From contig JALHSY010000055.1 of assembly GCA_022865455.1 (NCBI GenBank), positions 3,965 to 67,964 of the forward strand: 64,000 nucleotides of DNA, written 5' to 3'. This document shows positions 16,203 to 37,064 of this stretch, one piece after another. Numbering within the stretch: the stretch's first letter is position 1; each line of letters begins with the position of its first letter. The notes under the pieces are model-generated. The model saw only the letters and a program-made list of their open reading frames with translations. It was not told the DNA's origin and did no database searches. Source of the DNA: Candidatus Bathyarchaeota archaeon (GTDB lineage: Archaea > Thermoproteota > Bathyarchaeia > Bathyarchaeales > Bathycorpusculaceae). The translations under genes were made by a program, and so were the position numbers.

Positions 16203-16223
16203 GATACTGTTAAGTTATTTGTG
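16203..16223 (+). repeat. 21-nt repeat GATACTGTTAAGTTATTTGTG (copy A)
   Basis: Identical to 37044-37064. It is the reverse complement, with 1 mismatch, of 22161-22181. Confidence 0.75.
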
Positions 16224-16285
16224 GTGACCAAAAAGAGCCCTACATGCGACCAGAGTTTTCTAATGAGAGTCTTGTGAAACGTTGG

Positions 16286-18004
16286 CTATTTTGGAGATAG
16301 TGACCATGTATTGACTGCTAAATCAGCAAGTTTCTTCTGCCTTTCATTTATCTCGATTGGACTCCACAGAGTTTGTTCATTTGTGAGTTCGCAAATAAGC
16401 TGAGTTATTGCTAGTGGGCTTTTCTTGTATACAAGTCGTTTGGTCTGGAACGGAGCATTTCCAAAATCAGCGTTAGTTGTTGCGTTTAGTAAAGTCATAT
16501 TTCCGATTCTTTTGGTGTATGCATCTGCCGTTTCAGAATCAATATGTGGCCAATTGTTTGATCGTTCATACGGTAGGATATGTTCTAAGTTGAGAAAATC
16601 CGTATCTCGTTCTGGAACTAATTCTGGTTGAACATCCTTTCTCACGCAACGTTCTATTGCACGTAGATAGTATCGAGCAAGATTATGTTGTGATACTCTC
16701 GCAGTTGTAAAGGCTGTTCTAAATTCTTCGTCAGAAGGAATTACAGTCACTAAACTGTCTAGTAGTTCCTTTGTAGTCTTGATTTTGCCCATAGAGACGC
16801 TTAGAGCTTGATCTCCGTATGCATCTTCCAATTGTCCCCCCCTCATGCCACCAGAAATCAAGAATCTAACAGTCCAGCATATGAAGGAACGAAATGAAGT
16901 CAACGCTTCTGATGGCTCAAAATGCTTCGCAACAGCGAGCATTAATGGACGTATTTGTTGCACTTTCAATTCCCTAAGATTTGCAATACTTTCGCCGATT
17001 TGAGCTGGATAGCTATTCCACTTTTCATGAGTTGGAGTGAGTATTGCAGCATAACTATTTGCATAATCGGCAAGCTTGTCCAGAAAGCTAATTGCTTGAC
17101 CTCTACCTTGTACTTCTTTCTGAATCTTCTCGAATATTTCTTTTTCACGTGTTGGACCATACAACGTAATCATCAAGTGCCTCAGGTAAGTCATTACTAT
17201 GTCCTCAATGCCCAAAGTTTCCAGTATAGCAATCATTCTAGACCATTTTTGCTGTGCTTCTTGTATACGGTCACCTGCTTCATGGAAAAGAAAATTCTTA
17301 ACCAAATCAGCTTGAGAAGTCTTAAGACCACGATCATTTAGCGTTTCAAACATCATGAAGGCATTCACTTCATCAGGAACGGTCAGGTGAATGATAGTGG
17401 CTTTGTTGTCTATGAATTCTAACCATTCATTCAGGATGTCTTTAATGTTCCTGAAATCAGTCTGATTCTTCACTAAGTCTTGAACTAGACTTTCTGCTTT
17501 GTTTGCTGCAAAGTCGATTCGCTTGTGTGATTCTTTCTTTGGCTCAACAGACTGTCGTTCTTTAGCATTTGGTAGAGCAATTATGCGATTCTTAAAGTAT
17601 TCATTATCATCTGTGTTCAACGCCAGCTTAGGCACAGTTTCTACTTGTTCTCGATCAATTTTATACAGGTACTCTGTGTCAATGGAAGCTTGCAATGTTT
17701 CCTGTTTGTTCAAGTAAAAATAGTCCCTGATTGCTGCTAGTAGTATTGTCGTAGTTGCCAATCTTTGTTGTCCGTCCACTACTTCTGGAACGTTTTTTGA
17801 GCCCTTTGAAATCACGATTGTGCCGAGAAAATAGATAGATTGCTTATTTCTTATTGCATTCTGGAAATCTCGGAATAGATCGCCAATATGCTTGTCTTCC
17901 CATGAATATTCACGTTGATTAGGGGGAACTTTCAAGCGACCAGCTTTTAGCAATGTTCCAATCCCTTTAAACTCAAAAACTGAACTAGTCGTTATTTTCT
18001 GCAT
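16286..18004 (-). CDS. GmrSD-like DUF262/DUF1524 protein (type IV restriction-like nuclease)
   Basis: The N-terminus has PNQREYSW and VVDGQQRL (DGQQR ParB-like NTPase motif). The C-terminus has LNLEHILP...NMTLL (His-Me/HNH-like DUF1524). Confidence 0.85.
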   Translation of the reverse strand: MQKITTSSVFEFKGIGTLLKAGRLKVPPNQREYSWEDKHIGDLFRDFQNAIRNKQSIYFLGTIVISKGSKNVPEVVDGQQRLATTTILLAAIRDYFYLNKQETLQASIDTEYLYKIDREQVETVPKLALNTDDNEYFKNRIIALPNAKERQSVEPKKESHKRIDFAANKAESLVQDLVKNQTDFRNIKDILNEWLEFIDNKATIIHLTVPDEVNAFMMFETLNDRGLKTSQADLVKNFLFHEAGDRIQEAQQKWSRMIAILETLGIEDIVMTYLRHLMITLYGPTREKEIFEKIQKEVQGRGQAISFLDKLADYANSYAAILTPTHEKWNSYPAQIGESIANLRELKVQQIRPLMLAVAKHFEPSEALTSFRSFICWTVRFLISGGMRGGQLEDAYGDQALSVSMGKIKTTKELLDSLVTVIPSDEEFRTAFTTARVSQHNLARYYLRAIERCVRKDVQPELVPERDTDFLNLEHILPYERSNNWPHIDSETADAYTKRIGNMTLLNATTNADFGNAPFQTKRLVYKKSPLAITQLICELTNEQTLWSPIEINERQKKLADLAVNTWSLSPK

Positions 18005-18007
18005 ATA

Positions 18008-18235
18008 TCATTCCCACTTTATTTTTTTGAAAAACTCTATCTGGTGTCCTACTGCTTCTAATTCTTTGATGGCTGCTTGCCTTAGTCGTTCTCGAACCCA
18101 AACGGAAAGAGGGGCCCCAGAAATCTTGGCGGCATCTTGGAATGCTTGCTTTTCAGCCTGTTCGAGTCGGATAAATAGCGATTCGACCTTTTTGTCTTCG
18201 GCTTTCTTGCTTGGTCTTCCGCGTCCAGCCATCAC
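18008..18235 (-). CDS. Ribbon-helix-helix-like small protein
   Basis: 75 aa with FIRLEQAEKQAFQDAAKISGAPLSVWVRERL, typical of RHH antitoxin or regulator folds. Its stop lies 3 nt from the GmrSD-like start. Confidence 0.55.
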   Translation of the reverse strand: MMAGRGRPSKKAEDKKVESLFIRLEQAEKQAFQDAAKISGAPLSVWVRERLRQAAIKELEAVGHQIEFFKKIKWE

Positions 18236-18334
18236 AATCCACAGAGCTATTTTTTGTATATCTTATTAATATACTTTTTCTGAAAAACGGAATTAATGTA
18301 TAATTATGGTATAGACAAAAATCGAGATTTCGGG

Positions 18335-18487
18335 CTACTTTATCCTGATTCTTTGTTTGATCCGATTTTCCCATTCCGCTTGTGTTACTATGCCCTTTTC
18401 TTCAAGCAATTCAACTAGGCTCGTAAGCATGGTATCTAACAAGTCAACTTCCTCTGAGAGTTCTCGTTTCGGTTTATTCTTTGCCAT
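18335..18487 (-). CDS. Small hypothetical protein (50 aa)
   Basis: My own translation gives MAKNKPKRELSEEVDLLDTMLTSLVELLEEKGIVTQAEWENRIKQRIRIK. Its start overlaps the stop region of the preceding small ORF. It is below the ORF-track size cut-off. Confidence 0.35.
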   Translation of the reverse strand: MAKNKPKRELSEEVDLLDTMLTSLVELLEEKGIVTQAEWENRIKQRIRIK

Positions 18488-18641
18488 GTTTTCCACCCTT
18501 CGTTAAATATCCCTTCTCTGAGAGCCAACTCATTATTATTGTTCGCAGCGTGTCTGAACACGTTTCGCCTATCGTTCCAACTAACTCTTTGTTCAGGAGA
18601 TCAGCAACATTTTCAGGAAGTGCTACTAGGACTTTTCTCAT
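18474..18641 (-). CDS. Small RHH/CopG-like protein (55 aa)
   Basis: My own translation gives MRKVLVALPENVADLLNKELVGTIGETCSDTLRTIIMSWLSEKGYLTKGGKHGKE. Its ATG overlaps the transposase TGA (ATGA). Confidence 0.4.
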   Translation of the reverse strand: MRKVLVALPENVADLLNKELVGTIGETCSDTLRTIIMSWLSEKGYLTKGGKHGKE

Positions 18642-19579
18642 TTCACAATCGCCTCCATTTCTCTTTTCTCTACCTTCTCAGGACTTGTTGCTTTGGCTAG
18701 AAGTTGTGCTTCATATTTTGTTGCTTCGTCTATCAATCCTTTCCATGTGCAAGGTGCTTCTGTTCTAGCTGCTTGTGCTGGCGTTTTACCGTTTAGGCTT
18801 TGGTGAGGTCTAACATAGTTGTAATGAATTGTGAAACCTTCCAGAAGTGCTTTTGTAGACTCAAAGCTTTTGAGTCCTCTCATCACTCTTGTGCGGTCTT
18901 TGACTGTTCCATGCATTCTTTCAACGATATTGTTTGTCTCTCTAGCTCGTATTCCGACTCTCTGTACTAATTCAGGTCTTGTGTCTTTTCGCATAGTATA
19001 GAAGACCTTGTTGAAAGCGGTTTCATATACAAAGCTACCGTCTACGAATACGGCTCTAGGTCTAACCTTGCTCTGTTCATATCCTTGCTTGAATACTGCT
19101 ATTGTGTCTTCTAGGGTTCTTGTTCCTGAGACGTGAGACGCAACCAGAAACTTCGTATCTTCGTCTATCATTTCCCAGAACCACACATTCCGCCCTTCAC
19201 ATGATAGCATTGTTTCGTCTTCATGCCATAAACCCGAAAGTTGAGGCGTGAGAGTAACCACGAAATCCTTAACCAACTTTGAGTATTTCTTTATCCAATT
19301 CAGGATTGTTACTTGACTGAAGGTTTCTCCGAATATCTGCTCTAGGTTTCTCTGAGTCTTGCGTAGCGATAGACCGTCATAATATAGGTTTAATGCGGTG
19401 ATTATGAGGTTCTTATCTGCCTTCATTTTGGCGAATCGTGCGTTCTCGTAGAAGCGGTGTCTACAGTCTTTGCACTTGTAGACTTGCTTGCCTTTGACTT
19501 TGCCGTCTTTCACGACTTTTTCAGAGCCACAATATTTGCATGGCATACGTCTCACAGGTATACTATAAGATACCTTCAC
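18638..19579 (-). CDS. IS6-family-like DDE transposase with N-terminal zinc finger
   Basis: 313 aa with CKYCGSEKV...YKCKDCRHRF, the DDE residues (WHEDETM, VFVDGS, NNIVERMHGTVKDRTRVMRGLKSF) and C-terminal YVRPHQSLNGKTPAQAA. Confidence 0.85.
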   Translation of the reverse strand: MKVSYSIPVRRMPCKYCGSEKVVKDGKVKGKQVYKCKDCRHRFYENARFAKMKADKNLIITALNLYYDGLSLRKTQRNLEQIFGETFSQVTILNWIKKYSKLVKDFVVTLTPQLSGLWHEDETMLSCEGRNVWFWEMIDEDTKFLVASHVSGTRTLEDTIAVFKQGYEQSKVRPRAVFVDGSFVYETAFNKVFYTMRKDTRPELVQRVGIRARETNNIVERMHGTVKDRTRVMRGLKSFESTKALLEGFTIHYNYVRPHQSLNGKTPAQAARTEAPCTWKGLIDEATKYEAQLLAKATSPEKVEKREMEAIVK

Positions 19580-19712
19580 TCATATATGTCTTGTGGTATG
19601 TCCACAAGATACCCAACTTGATAGTAGAAAATGTTTATTAGTAAGCATAAAGAAATACTTACTGTATTTAGTACTCAAAAATACTACAAGCATGTATGAT
19701 TGAGGGAAATGA

Positions 19713-19868
19713 ATGACAAAAAACCACATAACCGTTCGTTTGCCCCCAGAATACATAGAATGGCTTGAGAAAAAAGTTGAAGCCCACGATTATGGTTCAG
19801 TCAGTCATGGCATAACCCAACTTATCCGTGACGAAATTAGACGAGAAGAAGGCAAGAAAAATGAATGA
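19713..19868 (+). CDS. Small RHH (CopG-like) protein (51 aa)
   Basis: My own translation gives MTKNHITVRLPPEYIEWLEKKVEAHDYGSVSHGITQLIRDEIRREEGKKNE. Its stop overlaps the ATG of the next gene (ATGAATGA). Confidence 0.5.
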   Translation: MTKNHITVRLPPEYIEWLEKKVEAHDYGSVSHGITQLIRDEIRREEGKKNE

Positions 19869-20445
19869 AAAAAGGCGCATTGAAGACGACCTTTCGATTA
19901 CTCAGAAGGTATCTATCCTGCTTATTGGAGCCAACAGTTTTCAACCAATAAGAGGCAAACTTTGGTTCCAAAAAGAACTGTTTCTGATTGCACGAAATAT
20001 CGGAGAACTAGCCGAAGAAGCAGATTTTGAAAGTGACTTTATCGGACCATACTCTGAAATAGCCGACGAAGAGCTAGACCAACTTAAAAGGGAAGGCATC
20101 GTTTCCAAAGAAAAAGTTGAGTTGACCCCTCTTGGTCGTGATGTAGCTAATCGACTTAGAGTACAAAGCCCGCCTGCGATACTTAAATTAGTTTCAGAAA
20201 TGAAACGTTTCCTTAACAATCTGACAAAAGAGGAATTGCTTGGCTTCATATATTATTCATATCCAGAAATGCGAGTGGACTCTGTTGAGTTTGCAGAAAT
20301 CGACAAAAACAGAGTACAGATAGCTATTAGTTTGTTTGGAAAGCGCAAAGTAAGTCTGGGCAAAGCCGCACTGATTGCTGGGATGAGCCAAGATGATTTT
20401 ATTAGTGAATTGAAAGCAACAGGCGTCAGAGTTTTCGCGGAGTAG
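19861..20445 (+). CDS. Putative antitoxin: Panacea (DUF4065)-like N-domain plus UPF0175-like C-terminal HTH
   Basis: Contains GKLWFQKELFLIA...DFIGPYSEIADEEL (Panacea-like pattern) and C-terminal VSLGKAALIAGMSQDDFISELKATGVRVF (UPF0175-like). The track ORF starts at a GTG at 19828. The ATG at 19861 is coupled to the upstream RHH. Confidence 0.55.
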   Translation: MNEKRRIEDDLSITQKVSILLIGANSFQPIRGKLWFQKELFLIARNIGELAEEADFESDFIGPYSEIADEELDQLKREGIVSKEKVELTPLGRDVANRLRVQSPPAILKLVSEMKRFLNNLTKEELLGFIYYSYPEMRVDSVEFAEIDKNRVQIAISLFGKRKVSLGKAALIAGMSQDDFISELKATGVRVFAE

Positions 20446-20452
20446 ATACTTT

Positions 20453-20953
20453 TTGAAACTGGTTTTGGATGCATCTGTCATTATTGCATTCTTTAGAGAG
20501 CTAGATGATGGACAATTCCTTTATGCTCTAACCAAAAAGGGTTTTGAAATCTATGTTACAGATGGAGTCATAGTTGAGGTTAAGAAGGAACCAGAACTCA
20601 GTAGACTAAGACAAGCAATACGCGAAGGATGGATTGGAAGTAAGTCTGTTGAGAAGCACGAATTTGACAGGTTAAAGAACGTATATCCAATGTTGGATTA
20701 TGCAGAGGTTGAAGTCTTGATATGTTGTTTACGCTTTAGGTCTTATGACGAAGAATATTGTTGTGTTCTCGACGAAGGCCCTGGAAGGAAAATAGCAGAT
20801 TCACTGAACTTGGCAAAAACGGGCACGTTGGGTTTGCTCAAAATCTTGGAAGATAACAAAATCATTGATACTGAGTGTACGGAAAAGCTTTTGAACAAAC
20901 TGGAACAATCAACATTTAGATTGAGGAAACACAATCAGGGCATTACCCAATGA
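20453..20953 (+). CDS. PIN-like (DUF3368-type) nuclease, putative toxin
   Basis: N-terminal LVLDASVIIAF with acidic residues spaced as in PIN domains. UPF0175/DUF3368 is a known gene pairing. Confidence 0.6.
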   Translation: MKLVLDASVIIAFFRELDDGQFLYALTKKGFEIYVTDGVIVEVKKEPELSRLRQAIREGWIGSKSVEKHEFDRLKNVYPMLDYAEVEVLICCLRFRSYDEEYCCVLDEGPGRKIADSLNLAKTGTLGLLKILEDNKIIDTECTEKLLNKLEQSTFRLRKHNQGITQ

Positions 20954-22155
20954 CCCATCTGTATATAGACCCGATTTTTGTGGACAAGGAAGATGAGACA
21001 CTTTACAAGAGCAAGAGAATACGCGTTGATGGTAAATCATTTGACACTCCAATAATCTCGTATGATATGACTGTATTTAGAAGCAACGATAGGGTTGCTC
21101 CCCCGACAAAAGGATTAAATGAGATCTACCAGTTGATGGGAACAGAAAAGGTTCCTATAGGAAAACTAATGTCTAACATGAAGGCAGAAAAGGATTTTGA
21201 TGTTAGACTTCAGACCAAGTTTGGTCGAACTGATTCCGCTCATGAGGTAAACATCGGGATCTTGGAAAGCGAATCAGCATCGTATCCTTCGGGGACAGAA
21301 CTAGATTATGTTTTGAAAACAGCATCTATAATTTCGGACATTGTTCCAATTCCTAACTTTCATAGCATAACGGCAAACATTGACTCTGATTCTCAGTTCT
21401 TGGAATACACCAAGTTCTTGGAAAATGTGATTTCCAACGTCGAATCTTACAAAGATAGAAAACCCATCATGGGTGTGATTCCTAAACTATCATACACAAA
21501 CACTGAGAAACTGGTCGAGTTCTATATTGACAAAGGGCTTAACGCGTTTTATGTGGATTTTGCAGCGAGAAACTCGATTACTGCGCAGAGAGACTTCTTG
21601 CATGTCTTTAGTGTTTTGCATGAACACGACTTGATTGAGAAGAGTTTTGTTTACGCGTTCAATGTGGATGCTGGTAGACTGTCAAAGAATGCTACAGTTG
21701 TGAATGCAAGAGATATTCTGTCTTATGGATTTGGCTTTGACGCAATAGGCAGAAAACACAGACGAGTTAAGGCTAGTTCTGAGACATGGCGAAGAATCAA
21801 CACGTTGCCTAACAGAGTTCGATTATTCAATAGATACGATTATGGGTATCACAAAATTCTGGAAGCTGAGAAAATCAAGGAGATTTATCCTAGTGATTCA
21901 TGCATATCTCTTGAGAAGCTTTTGAGCAACTTCTATACAAATGTCCAAGAATTAAGAAGATGCGAGAACATGCTAAACAGTGAGCAACTTGGGCTTGAAG
22001 CTAATAACCTAAAATATGTTATTAAGAACGACAAACCAACCGAGTATTTGGCCGACAAGACATACGTAAAACCAATCGACCTCAAAACAATAACCAGATT
22101 CAGAAAATCATTATCTACCTCTGCCAAACCTAACTGGGAAAATTGGCTCAAATAG
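20950..22155 (+). CDS. Hypothetical protein (401 aa)
   Basis: Uninterrupted ORF overlapping the PIN-like stop by 4 nt. No motif recognised. Confidence 0.6.
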   Translation: MTHLYIDPIFVDKEDETLYKSKRIRVDGKSFDTPIISYDMTVFRSNDRVAPPTKGLNEIYQLMGTEKVPIGKLMSNMKAEKDFDVRLQTKFGRTDSAHEVNIGILESESASYPSGTELDYVLKTASIISDIVPIPNFHSITANIDSDSQFLEYTKFLENVISNVESYKDRKPIMGVIPKLSYTNTEKLVEFYIDKGLNAFYVDFAARNSITAQRDFLHVFSVLHEHDLIEKSFVYAFNVDAGRLSKNATVVNARDILSYGFGFDAIGRKHRRVKASSETWRRINTLPNRVRLFNRYDYGYHKILEAEKIKEIYPSDSCISLEKLLSNFYTNVQELRRCENMLNSEQLGLEANNLKYVIKNDKPTEYLADKTYVKPIDLKTITRFRKSLSTSAKPNWENWLK

Positions 22156-22160
22156 GCCAT

Positions 22161-22181
22161 CACAAATGACTTAACAGTATC
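22161..22181 (-). repeat. 21-nt repeat, inverted copy C (CACAAATGACTTAACAGTATC on + strand)
   Basis: Reverse complement GATACTGTTAAGTCATTTGTG matches copies A and B at 20/21 positions. It lies between the TA-like operon and the cassette array. Confidence 0.75.
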
Positions 22182-22325
22182 GCCATCACCCGACTGTTAA
22201 CACGGAGACGAATCACCCATCAAGTTAACATAACCTCGTTTTGGCTTCTGTCACGTCTTAGGGTCATGTAGCAGTGCAAAAATGCCTAGTATTGCACGTT
22301 TCGCCCCGGGAAAGAAGAGGGAGGG

Positions 22326-22532
22326 TTAAAAGTCGAACGTGAAGTCTTTGCCGTGTTTTTCGAGCCACTCTTCTAGTGCTTTTCTACCAATTTTGGTTTT
22401 CATTGCAGAGGGCATTTTGCCCTTGTGATTGGCCCATTTTACACAGTAATCATTGAGGTTTTTGGCTATTTCTGGTGTGAGGGTCAGGTTGAGACGTTCG
22501 CTTTCTTCAGCCTGTTCCTTCTTGCTTGGCAT
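22326..22532 (-). CDS. RHH (CopG-like) protein, last gene of cassette array
   Basis: 68 aa with LNLTLTPEIAKNLNDYC, which fits an RHH strand-helix. A variant leader copy lies at 22540-22570. Confidence 0.55.
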   Translation of the reverse strand: MPSKKEQAEESERLNLTLTPEIAKNLNDYCVKWANHKGKMPSAMKTKIGRKALEEWLEKHGKDFTFDF

Positions 22533-22579
22533 TTTGTATCACCCCACATTTGCACAAGGAGAAAAAGGGAAAGGAGTAT

Positions 22580-22924
22580 TTATACAGATTGGAGAAGGGT
22601 TTTGAGAGTGAATTCTTGTGGCTGAATGGACTTCATGTTTCTGAGCGAGAACTCTTGTGTTGATTGAGGTACGGGCCCGACTTCTTCAGATTTGTTGCTG
22701 CCGTCTTTCATGCAGAACATGTAGTACCACAGGAAATGGTTCGAAAGGTACTCCTCTTCAGCCGAATCCCATTCGTCCAGTCGGAATTCCGGGTTGAAGT
22801 CTGGGATTTGTGATTTAAGGTAGTCTTTGTTTTCGCTGTAGGTCAAAGTATCATCGATGAGGTGTTCGTCCAACTCATGTTTTCTGCAGAATATTTTCAG
22901 TTGTCTAAGTTGAAGGTTATTCAT
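22580..22924 (-). CDS. Hypothetical protein (cassette array)
   Basis: 114-aa ORF. The leader GGGGTGAAAATGA lies just upstream of the ATG at 22924. Confidence 0.55.
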   Translation of the reverse strand: MNNLQLRQLKIFCRKHELDEHLIDDTLTYSENKDYLKSQIPDFNPEFRLDEWDSAEEEYLSNHFLWYYMFCMKDGSNKSEEVGPVPQSTQEFSLRNMKSIQPQEFTLKTLLQSV

Positions 22925-22966
22925 TCATTTTCACCCCAAACAGAAAAAGGAGGAAAGTTTGTCGCT

Positions 22967-23425
22967 TCACGCTATTGGTCCTGCTTTCAACGAGAACCTT
23001 GGCACTGGCTTCATCGAGTTCTCATCCATAAGCTTATTGAGGAACTCGAGGATTTCCTTTTCTCTCTGCTTTTCTTTCTCTCTGCGGCCTAGCTCTTCAT
23101 AGCGTTGTGTCTTTTCGTTGTATACATCTGGAACCGAAACTACGAAGGATATTTTGGTGCGGTGACTGCTTGTATTGTAGAGTTTTTCTTCGATGTCGAA
23201 TCCCCAGTATTCATTCGCCTTTCGCTTCATGAAACTTATATGGGAAGGTGAGAATCGGACCGTGTACTCTCCAGTGTCAAGATATCTGAATCCACAGCTT
23301 CCAATCTCTATACGGACGCCAGAATGCGGCAGGTTCGTCACGATGTCTATAGCCACTTTGTGTACCAATTTTTGCAGGACGGTTTCGAACTGGTCAAAGC
23401 CATATTCACTTCTTATCGTTGGCAT
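22967..23425 (-). CDS. Hypothetical protein (cassette array)
   Basis: 152-aa ORF. The leader GGGGTGATAAAAG precedes the ATG. Confidence 0.55.
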   Translation of the reverse strand: MPTIRSEYGFDQFETVLQKLVHKVAIDIVTNLPHSGVRIEIGSCGFRYLDTGEYTVRFSPSHISFMKRKANEYWGFDIEEKLYNTSSHRTKISFVVSVPDVYNEKTQRYEELGRREKEKQREKEILEFLNKLMDENSMKPVPRFSLKAGPIA

Positions 23426-23440
23426 CTTTTATCACCCCAA

Positions 23441-23463
23441 CAGAAAAAGAGCCCTTACGGGCT
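23441..23463 (-). terminator. Hairpin AGCCC-GTAA-GGGCT followed by CTTTTTCTG
   Basis: The stop codon of 23455..24006 lies in the hairpin loop. The T-run is the T5 part of the conserved leader. Confidence 0.4.
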
Positions 23464-24006
23464 TTTTCGAGCTTTCATGTAACTTTCTAGAGGATAGAGC
23501 TGTATCTCGATTGCTTCAACTATGCGTTTCGCGTCAGTCTCCCAGCAAGGTATATCGTCTAGAACTCTGTGACCGGACTCGTTCTTTCTAAAGAAGTCTT
23601 TCAGATGACGAAGCGTTGGATACTGAGCCACCCATCCGCAGATGTTATAGTGTGCGATGCTGCCACAGCATAGATGAAGAAACTCGTAGAAGTATTTTGA
23701 CAGTACAGGGTCCGTGTCGACCGGGAGCCAGAGGACACCAGCAACAAGGTGACGGCCAGGCTTCTTCTCGCCGTACAGTCTGCCATGCTCCATGATTCTC
23801 TTGAGGTTCTGGAGTATCCGTTTCTTGCTCCATACACTATTTCCGTTGACCATGATTGTGGCTTTTACGTTGTTTTCGTCTATGAGGTCCTGAAGTTTCA
23901 GTCTAGCTGCAGGTTCAATCATATCTTCCAGGCGTTCTATTGTTTTCAGAAGTTCCTCGGCCTTGACTACAGTTTTTTTCTGTCCATGAACTTCTATTTT
24001 CAACAT
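23455..24006 (-). CDS. Hypothetical protein (cassette array)
   Basis: The track ORF starts at a GTG at 24018. The ATG at 24006 sits 9 nt after GGGGTG and gives MLKIEVHG... Confidence 0.55.
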   Translation of the reverse strand: MLKIEVHGQKKTVVKAEELLKTIERLEDMIEPAARLKLQDLIDENNVKATIMVNGNSVWSKKRILQNLKRIMEHGRLYGEKKPGRHLVAGVLWLPVDTDPVLSKYFYEFLHLCCGSIAHYNICGWVAQYPTLRHLKDFFRKNESGHRVLDDIPCWETDAKRIVEAIEIQLYPLESYMKARKSP

Positions 24007-24038
24007 TAGTATTTTCACCCCGAAGAAAAAAGGAGGAG

Positions 24039-26902: not shown

Positions 26903-27938
26903 TTAAGTTATGAATATTGGCATCCGCATTACGTTTTTTGCTGTTGTCTGGTAGTATTTGACTAGCACTTGAAGGTTTGTTGAGATGGCCCTGTAGGGTT
27001 CGCCTACTTGTTCGTAGCTGAATGACGCTTTCAGAGGCTTAGGTGAGTCTGACAGCTGGTCTTTTGTTTTTCTGAGCTCCCACTCGTTAAACCCGCTGCC
27101 AACGCATCCACGATATCTTCCGTTTTCATCTGCTAAAACCAGGCTGCCGAAGAATGAGTTTCTAGCGTTCTCTCCAGCTGTGTATCCAACTACGTTGCAG
27201 ACCTCGAAAAGCCAGTTCTTCACTTTTAGCCAGCTGTAGGACCTCTCATGCTCGTATGGGCTCTCAATTTGTTTTGCTATTAAGCCTTCGCGGTTCATGC
27301 TGATGGTCTCTTCCCATGCACTTAAGAGGTCTTTCTGGAAAGGAACGAATTGTACAGTGGCATCTTTGACCTTGGAGAGAAGTTGCTGCAGCAGCTCTTT
27401 TCTTTTCCAGTAAGGTATCTTCTCAGTATTGCCGCTCTTGACCTTGAGAACATCGAAAGCTTCGAATGTTATGGGAAAACTGTCTCTTAACATGTAGTCT
27501 GGGAACTGGGTTGCACATCTTCGTTGTGCCGACGTAAACTCTTCCTCGCCCGTTTTAGGGTTTATGTAGACGACTTCGCCGTCTAGCGTCCACATGCCAG
27601 GAATCTGTTTGAGAGCCTTAACTATCTCTGGCAGGCGTATTTTCTACGCATACGACAATGACGATACTGTCTAATTGCGTTATGCTGTGTAGATTACGCC
27701 GTGCCTGTTCTGCAATGTTACATTACCGTCGCCTATAGCGATGACACGTGTACCGTCCCATTTACGGGCTATTTTAGGAGGTAGCTTTCCGTTCGGCGAC
27801 GAAACCGCGTATCATCAGTTTCTTTAGTTGTTCTACAATGGCTTTCCTGTACGCTACGGTTGCAGCAGGCCCGTCTAAGCCGTTTTGTCTGACTAGTGAC
27901 ATGTCTACTTCGACTTCATGGCATAGCATTGGCATCAT
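26903..27938 (-). pseudogene. ATP-dependent DNA ligase, disrupted near motif I
   Basis: The ORF 26903..27595 carries WTLDGEVV, EGLIAKQIESPYE, SWLKVK and GSLVLAD..GRYRGCVGSGF. My own translation upstream finds MMPMLCHEV...GFVAERK, stop at 27774. A +1 frame then gives ARKWDGTRVIAIGDGNVTLQNRHG (KxDGxR), stop at 27680. A third frame gives RLPEIVKALKQIPGMWTLDG. Confidence 0.7.
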
Positions 27939-28960: not shown

Positions 28961-28995
28961 TTTCTACACCCCAAAACAGAAAAAGGAGGGAAAGT

Positions 28996-29229: not shown

Positions 29230-29259
29230 CCCAATAGAAAAAAGAGAGGGATTTTTAGA

Positions 29260-29487: not shown

Positions 29488-29508
29488 CCCGACAGAAAAA
29501 AGGAGAGT

Positions 29509-30925: not shown

Positions 30926-30998
30926 GGTTTATTTTCTCCCTAATTTGAGGAAACTAACCCCTTGCGCTATTTTGCCGTAGAGGATTTCAGAAAGGCTT

Positions 30999-31292: not shown

Positions 31293-31715
31293 ACCAAAAC
31301 CCCTGTTTATTTGTGGGCGACAGTTTAGAGAAGCCTTAGTAATCCTCAGTAATCAAATCTTAAAGGCTTTATTCTGCTTCAAAAGTGTTTTATTCCGCCT
31401 TTTTGAATATTCGCCTAAGATTTAGGCGTTTACTCACTTATGCGTCTTATTTAAGACGTGAAACGCTATTCTAAAGGTTTTTTGCGTTTCGCCCTTCCAG
31501 AGCTACACTTTTTAACCTTCTCCGAAGGCACAGCCAAAAACTCACTAAATAGGCGCAATAGCCTTTTTAGGACAGCCTAAGGCTTGTTTGGTAAATTGTG
31601 GCGTTTTTGTTCACTCTGAAACACCTAACAGCTCAACAGAGTTGCACAGCTTTAGCGGTCTTGCGTTTATCTCTAGGCTTCTAAGTTTGCCGTTTAGCTT
31701 GTTCTTGCCCATGTT

Positions 31716-31744
31716 GGTTATCGTTGCACTTTAGCACGATAACC
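31716..31744. promoter_or_regulatory. Perfect 9-bp inverted repeat GGTTATCGT-N11-ACGATAACC
   Basis: Read directly. It lies in the 900-nt non-coding region 31293-32186. Confidence 0.5.
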
Positions 31745-31778
31745 AAAAGCACTTCGTGCAAACAACTATTTAAACATG

Positions 31779-31798
31779 CGTTTTATTCACATAAAACG
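31779..31798. promoter_or_regulatory. Palindrome CGTTTTAT-TCAC-ATAAAACG (copy 2 of 3)
   Basis: Same 8+4+8 structure and the same GAA 3' flank as the copies at 8601 and 34631. Confidence 0.6.
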
Positions 31799-32136
31799 AA
31801 CATGACAAAGACATATCTTTGTCCAAATCTGAATAATCTTGCCATATTTCCATTATTCCGACATTATTTAACCTTAGAAGCTAGAACGGATAAGGTAAGC
31901 TAGGCTATGGAAGCTTAAGGACTCTATTCTAAGGCTTAATATGCGACAGGAACCCAAATCTAAGGATAAGTATCCACCTGAAAGCTCCTTTCAAGGATAT
32001 GTTCAACAGAGAAGATTCTAAGAGAAGTTACCTTGGAAGCGACCGTGTAGTCTGGGATTTTCATTTTGGCCTGTTTTAGCAAGAGGGAGGAGACGCCGCC
32101 TGCGCACTTACGTCTAGGGAGTTGTCTTTTCTCAGA

Positions 32137-32916
32137 ATCTCGAGAGCTGTTCCAAGTCCAGATATGCTTCCTCCTATAATTGAGATTTGTCTGGCAGACA
32201 AGTTGTTCGCCTCGAGATGATTTATTTTCACATTCTGTCTATTTGTGCTTTTAGTTCCAGATACTTCTCGAGATATTGCCAGTTGAAGGGATTATCTCGA
32301 GATGGTAAAATATTTGTACTCGAGACTGAAGAAGAGGACAGTCTCGAGAAGAAGGCGCCAGATGAGCCAGATGAGCTTAAAGGGTTATTCGAGAAGCCTC
32401 GAGATGAAGGAAAAGAGGATGAGGAGATACTCAGAGAGGTATTCGAGTCAAATCCTAATGCCGACATAAAGAAGCTTGTGGAAGCAACTGGGCTTCCTGC
32501 CCTGACACTTGGCAGGATCAAAGGACTAATCTCGATACGACGTAAGCGAGACTCGAGAGCATCTGGGAAGCATCTGGAAGAGGGCGAGGTAAGTGAACCG
32601 GACGCCAGGCAGCTTGTGGCTCAGTTCGGTCGGGATGGACTGAACAAGCTCAAACGCGGGTTCCTGAAGAAAACTTTGGCTCTTGCGCCTGGAATGGCTG
32701 ACAAGACAGCCGAGTGGATCCTTCACAAGTGGGACATAAACCCGAGAGTTCAGGACGATCCGAACACATTCTATGAGATGCTTCACAACGATGCTGGGTT
32801 GAAACCGAACATCGCCATTTCGATTGCCAAGGATGTTTTCAGTTTGGAGGAGCAGTACGCTGATATTCTCGAGGACAAGGGCGAGAAACCTATTTTCATC
32901 TCAGGCAGTCCTCGAG
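32137..32916. repeat. Cluster of ten CTCGAG(A) iterons
   Basis: CTCGAG occurs at 32139, 32211, 32267, 32296, 32319, 32343, 32398, 32552, 32868 and 32911, plus TTCGAG, CTCGAT and CTCAGAG variants. The sites fall in all three phases of the overlapping ORF. Confidence 0.75.
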
Positions 32917-33176
32917 TCTCTGGCTCGCCTACTGGAGAACCTATTCTGTACCGAAGAGACCAGTATTCACAGAGCACGGGGCCTTTCGAAGTGTCTGGGA
33001 GAGGAGGTCGCGGAAATTATCCTGACCAGCCAGGACAGTTTCTGACTATGGAAGCATATCTGAAACTTGAGCGTGAAAAAGAGGAAAAACGACGGATAGA
33101 GAAGATTGAAGACAAAATGGAGAAAATGACCCAGGAAATCGATTCTTTCAAGAAAGGCTTCGATATATGGGTCTGA
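32187..33176 (+). CDS. Hypothetical protein (5' third doubtful)
   Basis: 329-aa ORF with a TTG start. The C-terminal two-thirds look protein-like. The first ~130 codons coincide with the iteron cluster and may be non-coding. Confidence 0.45.
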   Translation: MSGRQVVRLEMIYFHILSICAFSSRYFSRYCQLKGLSRDGKIFVLETEEEDSLEKKAPDEPDELKGLFEKPRDEGKEDEEILREVFESNPNADIKKLVEATGLPALTLGRIKGLISIRRKRDSRASGKHLEEGEVSEPDARQLVAQFGRDGLNKLKRGFLKKTLALAPGMADKTAEWILHKWDINPRVQDDPNTFYEMLHNDAGLKPNIAISIAKDVFSLEEQYADILEDKGEKPIFISGSPRVSGSPTGEPILYRRDQYSQSTGPFEVSGRGGRGNYPDQPGQFLTMEAYLKLEREKEEKRRIEKIEDKMEKMTQEIDSFKKGFDIWV

Positions 33177-33220
33177 GTGGAGAAGACTACATAGAGTCTC
33201 TTGTTTTTCATTGGCTTTTC

Positions 33221-34207
33221 CTAGGAGCGTTTCTTTGCACCGAATTCGCCGTTTCTAATTGCTTGGAAAACTTGACTAACACTCCTAAAGAAGTGTGAAG
33301 GAATGGTCACCAATGCTCTAGTCAAAGCAAGAGCGAAATCGGTGTGTTCAGCCGTTCCACCCTGCAAGACGTCTGCCCAAAGATATGGACGGTATCTTGC
33401 AAGGCTGGAAGCCGCGAAAACAAGGATATAGTCTTTGAAAAAATTGGATGGAGAGTAGGTAAGGTCAATAAAATCGGTAGAAAAACGCTTTCCAATTAAC
33501 TCCATATTTGCTGTTTCATCAAAAGCCTTCGCATCAAAAGCTAGGAGCTGCTTTAGCGAAATGCATTCAGAGCCTTTGAATAGAAAGTGGTTGTTCGCAA
33601 CAAAAGCGATTTCTTCTTTCTCCATTATCGGTAGGAAAGGAGAAAAGGCCAAACAGGCGCCCAGAAGTACTCCAGTATCAATGAATCTCTGAAAGATCGT
33701 TCCGTTGCTCTTAATTACTTTAATCTCCATGTCCAGAAGTTTATCCGACCATTTGGAAATTTTTACTCCATGAGAAGTGGCATGTTCAGGAGTCCACTTG
33801 AAAAACGTATAGTTGAAGAATGAAATGAAGCAGTGTATAGAGTAATGGTACAGGACAGGAGCCACCATGTCACTTGTCCGAGAAGCTATCTTCCACAGTT
33901 CAATGGCATTTTTCAAAAGCGCAACATTCTGCGAAGCCACTTCAGGGTGCTTTCCCGAATACTCAGTCGTTACAACGTCGACGCGGTTTCCGCTCATCTC
34001 TGAATATCGTTTTACCACATCGTCAAGAGGAACAAACGTCTTGTTAATCTGACCCTGTAGGGTCTTATAGGGGTGCAGAAGAGTGAGAGTTTCGAAGAGC
34101 CTCCAATATTCATCACTTATGAATGAACGCAGCACTGCCAATCCCATCATGAGCTTCTTGTGGCTACTCTTAAGCTTTGCACAAGGGTGTGATATCGAGA
34201 GTGCCAT
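33221..34207 (-). CDS. Hypothetical protein, possibly YaaC-like
   Basis: 328 aa. PVLYHYSIHCFISFF and FAASSLARYRPYLWADVLQG resemble my recollection of the YaaC-like family. Unverified. Confidence 0.5.
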   Translation of the reverse strand: MALSISHPCAKLKSSHKKLMMGLAVLRSFISDEYWRLFETLTLLHPYKTLQGQINKTFVPLDDVVKRYSEMSGNRVDVVTTEYSGKHPEVASQNVALLKNAIELWKIASRTSDMVAPVLYHYSIHCFISFFNYTFFKWTPEHATSHGVKISKWSDKLLDMEIKVIKSNGTIFQRFIDTGVLLGACLAFSPFLPIMEKEEIAFVANNHFLFKGSECISLKQLLAFDAKAFDETANMELIGKRFSTDFIDLTYSPSNFFKDYILVFAASSLARYRPYLWADVLQGGTAEHTDFALALTRALVTIPSHFFRSVSQVFQAIRNGEFGAKKRS

Positions 34208-34221
34208 ATCTCATCCATGTT

Positions 34222-34494
34222 TCACAACAATCTGAAGTAGGCCACCTTCTCAAGATCTTTCTCTCCCTTCTTTTCTCTGACTAGTGGGTGACGTTCGACA
34301 GTCTTCAGAGCCGACTTCACATTTTCCTCTTTGAGATCAGTTGCTCTAGCGATGTCTGCAGGTGAGCGCCAAACATTGGGATTTTGTCTCAAATACAAGA
34401 AGACTCTAGCCCGCGAACCAAAAGGGAGTTCTTCTGTTCTTTCATCGTCCGCTACTGGCTTTCCGTCTCTAATTCCGATTTCTATCCTTTTCAC
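34222..34494 (-). CDS. Small winged-helix DNA-binding protein (paralog of 62234..62503)
   Basis: RVFLYLRQNPNVWRSPADIARATDLKEENVKSALKTVERHPLV...YFRLL aligns at roughly 45 percent identity with the ORF at 62234. Confidence 0.6.
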   Translation of the reverse strand: MKRIEIGIRDGKPVADDERTEELPFGSRARVFLYLRQNPNVWRSPADIARATDLKEENVKSALKTVERHPLVREKKGEKDLEKVAYFRLL

Positions 34495-34630
34495 CTCCTA
34501 TGCCCTATAGAAAGGCCAAACCTGACCCCAATTAGAGTTCTTGAGCTCCTTTTATTTTAGTTTTGCGCCTCATTTTCGGCGCTTCATTTGTCCACAGCGG
34601 CATTGCACAGCGCATTTCAATGCATCTTTC

Positions 34631-34650
34631 CGTTTTATGCCTATAAAACG
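34631..34650. promoter_or_regulatory. Palindrome CGTTTTAT-GCCT-ATAAAACG (copy 3 of 3)
   Basis: Lies 137 nt upstream of the wHTH gene start at 34494. Confidence 0.6.
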
Positions 34651-34702
34651 AAAATGACGGCAAATCTTATTATAAAAATCCTTGATGCAGTTAGCAGAAG
34701 GT

Positions 34703-34745
34703 GAAGGCGGGGTGGCCATCACCTGCTAGGAGGCCAACCCCCTTC
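34703..34745. other. GC-rich stem-loop (13 bp with one bulge and one mismatch, 14-nt loop)
   Basis: GAAGGCGGGGTGGCC-loop-GGCCAACCCCCTTC, paired by hand. It contains the 8-mer GCCATCAC. Confidence 0.5.
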
Positions 34746-35248
34746 ATAGTCTCACTTTAAACAATGAACTGGACGAAATCCACACTTCAAGAGCTTTTTC
34801 TTTTGTTCCAAAAAAGAGATGTTGAAACTCCCGACAAGTCCTGCCTTTCTTGAGGAAGAAGCTGCATGGAAGACGCAGAATCTGGAGGCATGAGGAGGCG
34901 CGACTGCATTAGATTTTTTGACTATCGAAAGAGGGCGTAATTCTCTGATTGTATGTGCCAATCTTGCTCGACGTCGTCTCAAGTCAGTTTCGAAACTCTT
35001 AGTAGAATACTGCCCTTTTCATCTTCAACAAAGACGATGAGGTTTCCTATTTTGGCATTTAGCTTTTCTTGCACGGATTTGACGAGGGTTACTCTATATT
35101 TTGGGCCGACCTTGCTAGTTCCTAAAACTTTCTCCACTTGTGTCACCCTCGCCTGTTTCTACTCTGCATAGACTGTTAAAAGTAGGTGAGTAAAGTAGCA
35201 CAAGTGTTAAATGTCGCACGAAGCAACGTCAAATGGGGACCGACTAAA

Positions 35249-36016
35249 ATGAGGAGAGAAATCCCTTTAGTGGTGTTGGTTTTATTTTTTCAGACCATAC
35301 TATTAGCACAGTTTGCAACACCAGTTGAAGCAAACACAACTCTAAATGTCTTGAGTCAAACGGGATACCTAGCCTCTGCTGGACAATATCTTGTTGTAGG
35401 AGAAACACAAAATGTTGGAAATCAAGCGGTCCATATGGTGAATATGACAGTATCATTCTATAATGCAAGTGACAATCTGATATGGATTGGCCACGGCGGC
35501 TTCATGCTGGATACAATTAATCCTGGCTGTAAGTCTCCTTTCATGTGTCTTATAAATAGCGAGATTTTGGCAAGCCAAGTGAACCACTATTCAGTGGAGA
35601 TATCGTCATTTGAACCTACAAACCCAAAGCCTGTAGGTCTCAGGATTGTGACGAATAGTTCCTACATCGATGAATACGGGGATATGGTCATAAATGGAAC
35701 CATCAAGAACACCGGGACCACGACTGCGTCTATGCTCACAATATGGGCAACCTACTATGATACACATGGAAATGTCACGGACGTCAGAGAAGAAGCTTTG
35801 ACAGTTTCACTGTACCCTAACCTGACTTTCCCTTTTGAGATAAAGCTATATGAGCCAAATAGAGTGCCTAGCATCACTAGCTATGAACTAACTGCAGAAT
35901 CATACGAATATGCATCGATCCCTGAATTTCCATCAGCCGCACTTTGGTTGCTAGTAATGGTTTGCGCTCTAGTCGCAGTTGCTAAGAAGAAAAACGCACA
36001 TCATGTTCTTGCGTGA
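35249..36016 (+). CDS. Secreted PEF-CTERM (archaeosortase-sorted) surface protein
   Basis: The ATG at 35249 gives the signal peptide MRREIPLVVLVLFFQTILLAQFATPVEA. The C-terminus has IPEFPSAALWLLVMVCALVAVAKKK. There are multiple N-x-S/T sequons. Confidence 0.75.
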   Translation: MRREIPLVVLVLFFQTILLAQFATPVEANTTLNVLSQTGYLASAGQYLVVGETQNVGNQAVHMVNMTVSFYNASDNLIWIGHGGFMLDTINPGCKSPFMCLINSEILASQVNHYSVEISSFEPTNPKPVGLRIVTNSSYIDEYGDMVINGTIKNTGTTTASMLTIWATYYDTHGNVTDVREEALTVSLYPNLTFPFEIKLYEPNRVPSITSYELTAESYEYASIPEFPSAALWLLVMVCALVAVAKKKNAHHVLA

Positions 36017-36078
36017 ATGGCAGAACAAATGCAAAACTCAAAAACAAGGAGACTCAAAGGATAAAAAAGAAGGTCCAA

Positions 36079-36723
36079 ATGCGAAAAGTATTGGCAATAG
36101 GCATCTCGATCTTAGTTGCAGCTATAAGTCTCAATTGCCTAGGCGCACAGTTTCACGTGGCATATGCCTCGCCAAGCTTCAGTTTTAGAGTTCGATTTCC
36201 CAGCTTTGTTCCCGACAGCTGGATACAAAATGACTACATCTTGGCTGTTGAATTGGAAATTCCTTCCGTGAGTTATTATGACGAAAAGAGGACTGACTGT
36301 AGCAGGTATCTTTCTCAACTTCCCCCCTTAGAATTTTCTATTGACGACTCTTGGATAGGGCTAAACGCAAAGATTACAATTGTTGCTCGATGGCATCTTG
36401 ATGATGTCATCATCGACATCAACCCTAACCCCGCTGATGGACGCTGGGGTCCTCTTTACAAACAAGCATCAGCTCTCGTCCTTTCGTATGTCATAGGTGC
36501 TAGCCCCGTGCAAGGGTCTGCAGACGGAAAGGATGACGGATACCTCTTAGATTATCCGCATGACGCCCATTTCAGTTACACATTAGAAACTTTGCAGGAT
36601 GGAAACGTCATCCCTGAATTTCCAGCCTGGACATTATTTCTAGCCGCCACAGGAATCTCCACACTTACAGTTGTCTCAGTTACAAGAAAGGCAAAACGCT
36701 ACCTCCATAACGTTGCCACTTAA
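36079..36723 (+). CDS. Secreted PEF-CTERM (archaeosortase-sorted) surface protein
   Basis: The ATG at 36079 gives the signal peptide MRKVLAIGISILVAAISLNCLGAQ. The C-terminus has IPEFPAWTLFLAATGISTLTVVSVTRKAKR. Confidence 0.75.
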   Translation: MRKVLAIGISILVAAISLNCLGAQFHVAYASPSFSFRVRFPSFVPDSWIQNDYILAVELEIPSVSYYDEKRTDCSRYLSQLPPLEFSIDDSWIGLNAKITIVARWHLDDVIIDINPNPADGRWGPLYKQASALVLSYVIGASPVQGSADGKDDGYLLDYPHDAHFSYTLETLQDGNVIPEFPAWTLFLAATGISTLTVVSVTRKAKRYLHNVAT

Positions 36724-37024
36724 GAAGCCCTATCTCTTTCCATGAAACTGCTATCTGTGTTGAGAGCGCTTGCAATTTCGACAAGGAGCCGCAGAACAAG
36801 TCCGCCTGTTCTGCTGTTACATTTTGCCTCGGGATCAGCGACGGCACCTCGTCAATCGCTACCAGCTTCTTCAGCGCTCCACATTTCACAACTCTAACGG
36901 TGTTTTCAAGTGCGTTCTCTGCAGTTGTTCTTTGGTCAAAACGTGCGTCAATGAGAATTGCTAAAACTCTTTCGAAGTTATTATCAAAAAATTGCTCAGC
37001 ATCCTTGTGCCTAAACCAAATCAT
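36680..37024 (-). CDS. Hypothetical protein
   Basis: 114-aa ORF whose start lies 20 nt downstream of 21-mer copy B. It overlaps the convergent PEF-CTERM gene end by 44 nt. Confidence 0.35.
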   Translation of the reverse strand: MIWFRHKDAEQFFDNNFERVLAILIDARFDQRTTAENALENTVRVVKCGALKKLVAIDEVPSLIPRQNVTAEQADLFCGSLSKLQALSTQIAVSWKEIGLLKWQRYGGSVLPFL

Positions 37025-37043
37025 AAATGGATCTGGTGCTCGG

Positions 37044-37064
37044 GATACTGTTAAGTTATTTGTG
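37044..37064 (+). repeat. 21-nt repeat GATACTGTTAAGTTATTTGTG (copy B)
   Basis: Identical to 16203-16223. It sits between the GHKL gene stop and the next minus-strand ORF. Confidence 0.75.

Follow-up and report, generated by a model that had tools for sequence, protein, structure and literature searches.

A 21-nt repeat in a Bathyarchaeota genome marks the ends of an IS6-related cargo transposon whose family appears to insert at promoter edges

Introduction

What placed one and the same 21-nt sequence at three positions within a mosaic of defense modules in an archaeal genome? The question is raised by a 64,000-nt stretch of the genome of a Candidatus Bathyarchaeota archaeon (assembly GCA_022865455.1, contig JALHSY010000055.1, positions 3,965 to 67,964 of the forward strand), hereafter called the window. 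Bathyarchaeia form an abundant uncultured lineage of sediments. The 21-mer GATACTGTTAAGTTATTTGTG occurs on the plus strand of the window at 16203-16223 (copy A) and 37044-37064 (copy B), and its reverse complement, with the single mismatch T14C, occurs at 22161-22181 (copy C). The initial annotation, made from the sequence of the window, proposed that the three copies delimit two modules, A-C and C-B, and have a role in recombination, and it kept a shared promoter as another possibility. We report here that one intact cargo transposon is bounded by copies A and C, and we put at roughly 93% the probability that a DDE transposon family of Bathyarchaeia, of which the A-C block is one element, has the 21-mer as the core of its terminal inverted repeat (TIR).

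Results

Copies A and C bound an intact transposon of 5,979 bp (16203-22181). A target-site duplication, which the initial annotation had recommended looking for, is present: the perfect 9-bp direct repeat GCCATCACC abuts the tips of both copies. The repeats and duplications are located as follows.

16203..16226, plus strand: copy A, left TIR (24 nt) of the 5,979-bp transposon (repeat search, family consensus)
22158..22181, minus strand: copy C, right TIR, with the mismatch T14C (same C variant in locus L070)
37044..37067, plus strand: copy B, left TIR of a second, truncated element (repeat search, junction-spanning contigs)
16194..16202, no strand: left target-site duplication GCCATCACC, identical to 22182-22190 and present as a single copy in the empty-site contigs
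22182..22190, no strand: right target-site duplication GCCATCACC (joint 16193 to 22182 in contigs of runs X3 and X4)

Population data came from the assembled Logan contigs of four metagenome runs (X1 to X4), compared with positions 15000-23500; X1 and X2 are probably the source sample, and X3 and X4 belong to other samples and studies. The contigs of X1 and X2 carry the occupied form. In those of X3 and X4, position 16193 is fused straight to 22182 and 5,988 nt are absent, that is, the 5,979 bp of the element plus 9; the joint has 9 shared letters and near-identical flanks. This joint is the empty site. The same block is also found at a second location: metagenome contig L070 holds its right 2,561 nt at 97.4% identity, T14C included, followed by a different flank, and a contig of X4 is identical to 21514-22182 and unlike the window thereafter. 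A-C thus forms a mobile unit in its own right whose insertion is polymorphic among populations, evidence of the kind that the initial annotation had asked for, and the earlier idea that A and C delimit a module stands, the module being a mobile one. The window itself is absent from the fetched public loci (numbered L), among which neither the A/C flanks nor the B flanks gave any match; the empty site was seen only in the run contigs.

The repeat bears the signature of a transposon end. A repeat search gave the three copies as first described, with C inverted and carrying one mismatch, and 100 shuffled controls yielded no match to the 21-mer at ≤3 mismatches. The family consensus is a 24-nt TIR, GATACTGTTAAGTTATTTGTGRTG, whose core is the 21-mer. 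In an alignment of all copies anchored on the repeat, conservation starts sharply at the first G and extends over about 24 nt, and the sequence beyond either side is unrelated between copies; individual copy-to-copy comparisons show similarity over 38 to 47 nt. A transposon end is recognized by just this combination: an abrupt outer limit, conservation over a short stretch, and neighboring sequences that differ from copy to copy. The repeat starts with GA, contains CTGTT at positions 5 to 9 (with G at position 7) and has no caaa motif; CTGTT (cTGTt) is a motif conserved in the ends of the IS6 family of insertion sequences (IS) (PMC7986276). The 9-mer CGATACTGT, which had been linked to the repeat because it recurs in the disrupted part of a ligase pseudogene, is indeed present at 27662-27670. 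The link itself did not hold, since the similarity ends after 8 nt, the first C of the 9-mer is part of the target duplication and lies outside the repeat proper, and one extra occurrence is at chance level; the 9-mer in the pseudogene is a chance match.

Between its ends, the transposon carries the following genes.

18638..19546, minus strand: IS6-type DDE transposase with an N-terminal CxxC...CxxC zinc ribbon (ATG at 19546; open reading frame [ORF] open from the GTG at 19579)
18474..18641, minus strand: core accessory gene s55, 55 aa, strand-helix-helix (ribbon-helix-helix [RHH]-like), whose start overlaps the transposase stop
18335..18496, minus strand: core accessory gene s53, a 53-aa two-helix protein, found after the transposase in 32 loci
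16286..18004, minus strand: cargo, GmrSD-type (DUF262/DUF1524) type IV restriction-like nuclease (Pfam GmrSD_N, 5e-33; GmrSD_C, 7e-22)
18008..18235, minus strand: cargo, 75-aa RHH/antitoxin-like ORF upstream of the GmrSD gene (weak RelB/TacA/DUF6290 matches, E ~2e-3)
19828..20953, plus strand: cargo, UPF0175 antitoxin-like gene and DUF3368 (PIN-like) gene (Pfam)
20950..22155, plus strand: cargo, 401-aa protein of unassigned family, whose stop codon lies 2 nt from the repeat

Pfam and NCBIfam searches thus confirmed the content first ascribed to the block (a GmrSD-like gene, an RHH protein, an intact IS6-like transposase and a toxin-antitoxin-like operon). The transposase scores 132.9 bits against the IS6 family model NF033587 of NCBIfam (cutoff, 125) and matches Pfam DDE_Tnp_IS240 at 1.8e-19 (70.7 bits versus 27), with an additional match to the IS1/IS1595-type zinc domain. 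Residues D110, D169, E209, K216 and R218 are invariant across eight elements, and the zinc-ribbon cysteines are almost fully conserved, the lone change being Cys to Trp in L097. Intact transposases with 71 to 89% amino acid identity lie within the repeat pairs of L008, L019, L022, L097, L101/L124 and L138. No convincing inverted repeats of its own bracket the transposase gene.

The transposase is invariably followed by two small genes, which belong to the conserved core and have mean identities of 77 to 81% over 25 to 32 related loci. The s55 gene directly follows the transposase in 25 loci (mean identity of the alignment, 81%). Its product has no family match and no Foldseek structural match, and the RHH assignment is drawn solely from the β-α-α topology of a low-confidence monomer model (predicted local distance difference test score [pLDDT] of only 63). 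The s53 product, also without a family match, is modeled by AlphaFold as a helix-loop-helix (pLDDT, 85.6). Both are candidates for a transposition regulator or target selector.

The cargo recurs beside the same ends elsewhere. The GmrSD gene adjoins the repeat also in L019, L033 and L024; in L019, the GmrSD-RHH-transposase order is that of the window, with the same ends and 69% nucleotide identity, and the 75-aa RHH-like ORF is kept together with GmrSD. The UPF0175/DUF3368 pair recurs in L070 (92 to 100% amino acid identity), with similar pairs in L022, L084 and L092. The 401-aa protein gave no Pfam or NCBIfam match; it is 100% identical in L070 and has distant relatives in L022, L084, L092 and L128.

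The repeat defines a family that is almost confined to Bathyarchaeia. In a collection with one genome per prokaryotic species, the exact 21-mer occurs at 28 loci, 26 of which are in Bathyarchaeia metagenome-assembled genomes (MAGs) of many species, against an arithmetic estimate of ~0.5 exact chance matches in 596 Gb. The metagenome scan gave at least 120 loci with the 21-mer, and IMG/VR gave five putative viral contigs (L149 to L153), so that the repeat is known from at least about 150 public loci, almost all of them in Bathyarchaeia. One contig binned as Anaerolineales (L015) carries the repeat and a transposase fragment and may be misbinned or transferred. A Chitinophaga MAG (L018) was set aside as a probable chance match, the sequence leaving the consensus directly after the 21-mer.

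The fetched loci yielded 23 distinct inverted pairs, which span 306 to 5,979 bp; 20 of them have an exact 9-bp target duplication, and the other 3 agree in 8 of 9 letters. Pairs that bear a transposase (those of the six loci above and the window) measure 3,208 to 5,979 bp. In each autonomous relative, 0.6 kb or more separates the transposase from the 24-nt ends, and cargo flanks it on either side. Other pairs have the same ends and duplications and lack the transposase: some, of 306, 377, 659 and 727 bp, resemble miniature inverted-repeat transposable elements (MITEs), and others, of 1.2 to 3.0 kb, carry cargo and resemble mobile insertion cassettes (MICs; e.g., L092, L094 and L108). The cargo of the transposase-less elements includes methyltransferase-Mrr fusions, an NYN domain, a ParA-like protein and a toxin-antitoxin-like pair. 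Over the family as a whole, the cargo comprises methyltransferase-Mrr fusions, a lone methyltransferase, an NYN nuclease, a ParA-like ATPase, GmrSD, UPF0175/DUF3368 pairs and a HATPase gene; judged from such domain matches, its predicted functions are mainly defense, restriction-modification and toxin-antitoxin activity.

Where a cargo gene adjoins an end, it nearly always points outward (L012, L022, L034, L040, L092, L094, L101, L105, L114, L117, L125, L138 and the window). These outward ORFs often close within the repeat or a few nucleotides from it, the outward strand of the repeat offering TAA in two frames; transcription would accordingly leave the element and enter the flank. In several loci, ends lie within or beside other ends: L003 (2107-2833) has a slightly different second repeat, GGGACTGTTAACTTATTTGTC, directly inside the first; in L013 (~5890-5935), the repeat is cut at nt 19 by another copy; L023 (4913-4967) has a second direct copy 54 nt inside; and L017 (~3300-3352) shows similarly nested or tandem ends. 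Family elements appear to insert into or beside one another's ends.

The insertion target was characterized on 178 unique flanks, read outward from the tip. The 9-bp duplication is followed by an A-rich pentamer at positions 10 to 14 and a TTTAWAW box at positions 15 to 21. A TATA-like hexamer starts at outward positions 15 to 17 in 67 of 173 flanks, compared with ~0.7 per position farther out (per-flank background at random positions, 1.3%; binomial p = 7e-43). This signal holds separately in the genome set and in the metagenome set, as well as in the 178 flank clusters. Of the 23 verified pairs, 13 have the TATA box in one flank and not in the other, and no pair has it in both. Positive flanks share the consensus G-W-A-A-a-N-TTTAWAW, which corresponds to the archaeal transcription factor B (TFB) recognition element (BRE) plus TATA box, pointing away from the element. 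Outward ORFs of at least 60 aa starting 36 to 95 nt from the tip accompany 24 of 42 TATA-positive flanks versus 36 of 113 negative ones (p = 0.005), and several begin 41 to 48 nt from the tip, as expected for leaderless messages. The duplication consensus is A/T rich and roughly palindromic. From these positions, the staggered cut would lie 5 and 14 bp from the TATA box, on its upstream side, and would leave BRE and TATA intact. As far as flank sequences can tell, the family thus appears to insert at the upstream edge of archaeal promoters, on one side only, with the promoter facing outward. No relevant description of archaeal IS targeting of TATA boxes was found in the literature.

A fixed orientation of the element with respect to the targeted promoter was considered and rejected, the transposase pointing toward the promoter in three cases and away from it in three. 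Mimicry of the target by the repeat is likewise unsupported as a basis for targeting: an ungapped promoter matrix gives the repeat 0.9 to 1.2 bits against a median of 9.1 for the target boxes, and the alignment by eye of AAGTTATTT with AANTTTAWAW needs a gap. In L086 (~3991), L139 (~3910) and L140 (50-426), insertions lie upstream of homologous zinc-ribbon genes starting with MEFCPKCG; their duplications differ, and the same host promoter may have been hit repeatedly in different genomes.

In the window, the targeted promoter belongs to an older IS6-like element, whose remnants surround the insertion.

16181..16189, minus strand: TATA-like box TTTTTATG of the targeted promoter, 14 to 22 nt outside copy A
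15547..16157, minus strand: decayed transposase of the older IS6-like element, in fragments of 89 and 114 aa (partial DDE_Tnp_IS240 and IS6 matches)
22191..22236, minus strand: terminal part of the older element, with the repeat-like GGTTATGTTAACTTGATGGGTGATT (tip at 22235/22236)

The leaderless start at 16157 follows the box TTTTTATG after ~28 nt, and the box fits the target logo of the family. The decayed transposase is ~40% identical to the intact one and 75 to 77% identical to genes in L011 and L088. With the A-C element taken out, ~90 nt would separate the GGTTATGTTAACTTGATGGGTGATT end from the start of the decayed transposase downstream of it, the arrangement that an IS end shows. These remnants indicate that the A-C element landed between the end of an older relative and its transposase promoter. 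In L087, an older end of 89% identity has an independent insertion of the family (a GATACTG element) 3 nt away. A 52-nt segment of this region (22184-22236, CATCACCCGACTGTTAACACGGAGACGAATCACCCATCAAGTTAACATAACC) occurs in many contigs of all four runs with differing flanks on both sides and with loose ends at 22184 and 22235; we read it as the probable end of a second, decayed IS6-like family. The X3 empty-site contig departs from the window right after 22236, the side of the cassette array being different in the X3 population.

Copy B is a solo left end, with cargo, of an older, fixed and truncated element.

37070..38881, both strands: cargo of the copy-B element, a 454-aa GHKL/HATPase (minus) and a 110-aa ORF (plus) (Pfam HATPase_c_3)

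The HATPase gene, which has a weak NCBIfam match to BbrUII/HgiDII-type restriction enzymes, ends 2 nt from copy B. After the same repeat, the pair is found in L021, L035 and L098 with 79 to 87% nucleotide identity (HATPase, 83 to 96% amino acid identity, with 96% in L035; 110-aa ORF, ~77%). L035 has the order repeat, HATPase, 110-aa ORF, transposase, s55, s53 and inverted second repeat, over 4,590 bp. In the window, homology to the intact elements reaches as far as 38881, where the 110-aa ORF terminates; beyond it lies a DEAD-box helicase gene. No partner repeat for copy B occurs within the window at ≤6 mismatches, the match at 48829 being noise. In the window, the copy-B element has lost its transposase module and right end and is unable to move alone. 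Contigs of all four runs span both of its boundaries, and none of the four shows an empty site or a rearrangement at B. The HATPase and 110-aa genes form a fixed two-gene cassette in four contexts, and homology ends at the 110-aa stop each time.

A C-B module, the second of the two first proposed, is not borne out. The tips of C (a right end) and B (a left end) face the DNA between them, so that these 14.8 kb (the cassette array, the iteron-like region and the PEF-CTERM genes) lie outside both elements.

Discussion

Our data identify the A-C block as a cargo transposon that has moved as a unit. Several observations weigh against this interpretation or against parts of it. The population data are assembled contigs and not raw reads, in which rare excision circles or inversions would be missed, and the empty site is an absence in relatives, not an excision. 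About 12 inverted pairs have no matching 9-bp duplication (among them L014, L035, L074, L102, L104, L110, L123, L134, L141 and L147); these may be ends of two elements, products of rearrangement or recombination, or results of intramolecular replicative transposition, an origin that, if true, bears on the transposition pathway. With respect to the target, about 40% of the verified pairs have no strict TATA match, although several of these 10 of 23 show a looser box by eye, and the flank of copy B has only a weak box, CATTTATG, which overlaps the annotated ORF start. Finally, the family departs from IS6 in duplication length, size and gene content, and the replicative cointegrate mechanism cannot simply be assumed for it.

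The most serious competing explanation concerns the target and not the element. Intergenic regions of archaea are short, promoters make up most of them, and insertions in genes would be purged; survival of harmless intergenic insertions, combined with a preference for A/T-rich DNA such as the A/T-rich, roughly palindromic duplications suggest, could bring about the BRE/TATA association without any active targeting. We consider this improbable. Survival would spread the distances between tip and box, whereas the box starts at positions 15 to 17 in 67 of the 173 flanks and almost never at neighboring positions; the box is one sided in 13 of 23 pairs and never present on both sides; and the window and L087 hold two independent insertions at homologous promoter-proximal sites 3 nt apart. 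Survival bias alone cannot yield the observed one-nucleotide precision.

The remaining explanations leave the transposon out or move it differently, and each is far less likely still. A reading of the 21-mer as a promoter or operator shared by unrelated genes has in its favor that A and B lie near minus-strand starts, 46 nt (start at 16157) and 20 nt (start at 37024) upstream, as first noted; the repeat moreover holds the A/T-rich stretch AAATAACTTAA on that strand. For A, however, the promoter is in the flank and not in the repeat, and the flank of B has only its weak box. The BRE/TATA signal sits in nonconserved sequence 10 to 22 nt outside the repeat, which itself reaches 1.2 bits on the promoter matrix against the median of 9.1, and the empty site keeps both TATA box and ORF without the repeat. 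At copy C, the corresponding downstream position is without a gene, and inverted pairs with exact 9-bp duplications around 306 to 5,979 bp are unlike promoters. A shared promoter is thus very improbable, and copy A owes its place just upstream of an ORF start to a family that inserts immediately upstream of promoters.

We find it scarcely credible that the copies are sites of site-specific or homologous recombination that invert or excise the A-C, C-B or A-B blocks. Such a role was suggested by the inverted pair around 6 kb and the direct pair 20.8 kb apart, in a region that is a mosaic of defense modules. No tyrosine or serine recombinase goes with the repeat, as would be found in a site-specific recombination module, while a DDE transposase is present in every autonomous copy, and the target duplications reveal staggered-cut transposition. 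In the four runs there is no A-B deletion or C-B inversion joint: the sole joint is the precise empty site, and the junctions of B are the same in all. In addition, 21 to 24 nt are too short for efficient homologous recombination, and the tip-to-tip placement of C and B leaves the DNA between them outside both elements.

That A-C is an IS26-style pseudo-compound transposon or translocatable unit, moved by an inner IS6 element with the 21-mers incidental, recalls the way in which IS6 elements move their neighbors (PMC7986276) and fits the type of the transposase, but is extremely unlikely, as there are no inverted repeats around the transposase gene and no second IS copy, all autonomous relatives have the transposase flanked by cargo on either side and 0.6 kb or more away from the same 24-nt ends, these ends coincide exactly with the duplication and the empty site, and transposase-less derivatives share both ends and duplications.

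The best description of the elements is therefore a family of IS6-related cargo (unit) transposons with MIC- and MITE-like derivatives, probably a previously undescribed one of Bathyarchaeia; no description of an IS family in Bathyarchaeia was found in the literature (ISfinder not covered). The family shares with IS6 a DDE transposase above the NCBIfam IS6 cutoff, with a DDE_Tnp_IS240 match, and the existence of MITE-like derivatives. An N-terminal zinc-finger extension, as in our elements, is present in IS6 clade h/VII-VIII, whose members are long and mostly from Clostridia (PMC7986276), and TIRs of more than 18 bp without a GG start are found in the archaeal "IS6" clades (PMC6807381), which Harmer and Hall proposed to separate from the IS6 family (PMC6807381). 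Differences are numerous. IS6 elements make an 8-bp target duplication (PMC7986276), versus 9 bp here, and consist of a single transposase ORF in 0.7 to 0.9 kb, up to 1.76 kb (PMC7986276), versus a transposase with two conserved accessory genes in autonomous elements of 3.2 to 6.0 kb. The repeats are a mixed case: those of IS6 are short (14 to 20 bp), with a GG tip and the cTGTt and caaa motifs, and those of our family have 24 nt, a GA start and CTGTT, and no caaa. A single passenger-carrying IS6 member, ISDsp3, is listed in ISfinder, compared with cargo on both sides of the transposase here. Pseudo-compound IS6 structures have directly repeated IS copies; the family has neither flanking direct copies nor a pseudo-compound structure, and no directly repeated full IS copies occur within the window. 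The strong, one-sided promoter preference is absent from the IS6 reviews consulted.

In their architecture, the autonomous elements resemble transporter IS (tIS) and unit transposons, since a single TIR pair encloses transposase and passenger genes and the whole moves as a unit with target duplication; the derivatives without transposase, empty or cargo bearing, are like MITEs and MICs. MICs were defined for IS231, and unit transposons are typified by the Tn3 family. These classical MIC and unit transposon examples have a transposase of another class, and the cargo of our family is almost entirely made up of predicted defense, restriction-modification and toxin-antitoxin genes.

As for the choice of target, strong positional preferences are familiar from IS911 and IS30 (repeat-like sites), the IS1111 group (Tn21-type repeats) and IS1397 (repetitive extragenic palindromic sequences). 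Each of these recognizes one repeated sequence, whereas the family would target a generic BRE/TATA motif before many unrelated genes. In the window and in L087, the target lies in the end of another IS6-like element, as is known of IS elements that insert at the ends of others. Closer in geometry are eukaryotic retroelements. Ty3 integrates at RNA polymerase III starts via TFIIIB, the Dictyostelium element TRE5-A inserts upstream of tRNA genes, and Tf1 inserts at RNA polymerase II promoters. Like the present family, they integrate at a fixed short distance from a core promoter, bound by TATA-binding protein (TBP)/TFIIB-like factors, which is left intact, and the site is thereby a safe haven. 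They are long terminal repeat (LTR) or non-LTR retroelements with protein-tethered integrases, whereas ours is an archaeal DNA transposon, for which recognition of the sequence is equally possible.

A working model can be proposed from what is common to DDE transposases. The transposase would bind both 24-nt TIRs, cleave at the terminal G and join the 3' ends to target strands 9 bp apart. The element lands just upstream of an intact outward promoter, in the window that of the older, decayed IS6-like transposase; this promoter may be recognized by its sequence itself or as DNA bent by TBP and TFB. The one-sided 13-nt motif 10 to 22 nt from the joint suggests either an additional DNA-reading module (zinc ribbon, s55 or s53) or TBP/TFB-bent DNA. 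It is tempting to speculate that the preinitiation complex is the target, with the transposase or its s55/s53 partners reading the TBP/TFB-bent promoter and integrating at the BRE edge; we regard this version as doubtful, albeit less so than survival bias. If it is true, targeting of the preinitiation complex would be the archaeal DNA transposon analogue of TFIIIB-directed Ty3 integration in yeast.

According to the population evidence, the 6-kb defense island block with GmrSD and the toxin-antitoxin-like pair arrived by transposition, and the family appears to be a major vehicle of restriction-modification, defense and toxin-antitoxin genes in Bathyarchaeia. With its 9-bp duplication, accessory genes, two-sided cargo and many cargo-only derivatives, it stretches the definition of the IS6 type. 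Were targeting of the preinitiation complex true, it would give the defense cargo a safe and transcriptionally open landing site; were promoter-edge targeting active, it would be one of the rare instances in which a prokaryotic DNA transposon is directed to promoters and might serve as a promoter-proximal insertion tool in archaea. The 24-nt repeat is in any case a simple annotation marker for mobile defense cassettes and recent insertions in Bathyarchaeia genomes.

Additional observations

To the left of copy B, two genes encode proteins with IPEFP and a hydrophobic stretch at their ends, which resembles a PEF-CTERM signal. In this region (35214-36064), 849 nt are missing from contigs of X3 and X4, which show 16 other letters, AGCGCCTAGCAGCACT, in their place, and another contig of X4 skips 836 nt; these skips indicate that related populations have the first PEF-CTERM gene (35186-36016) replaced or deleted.

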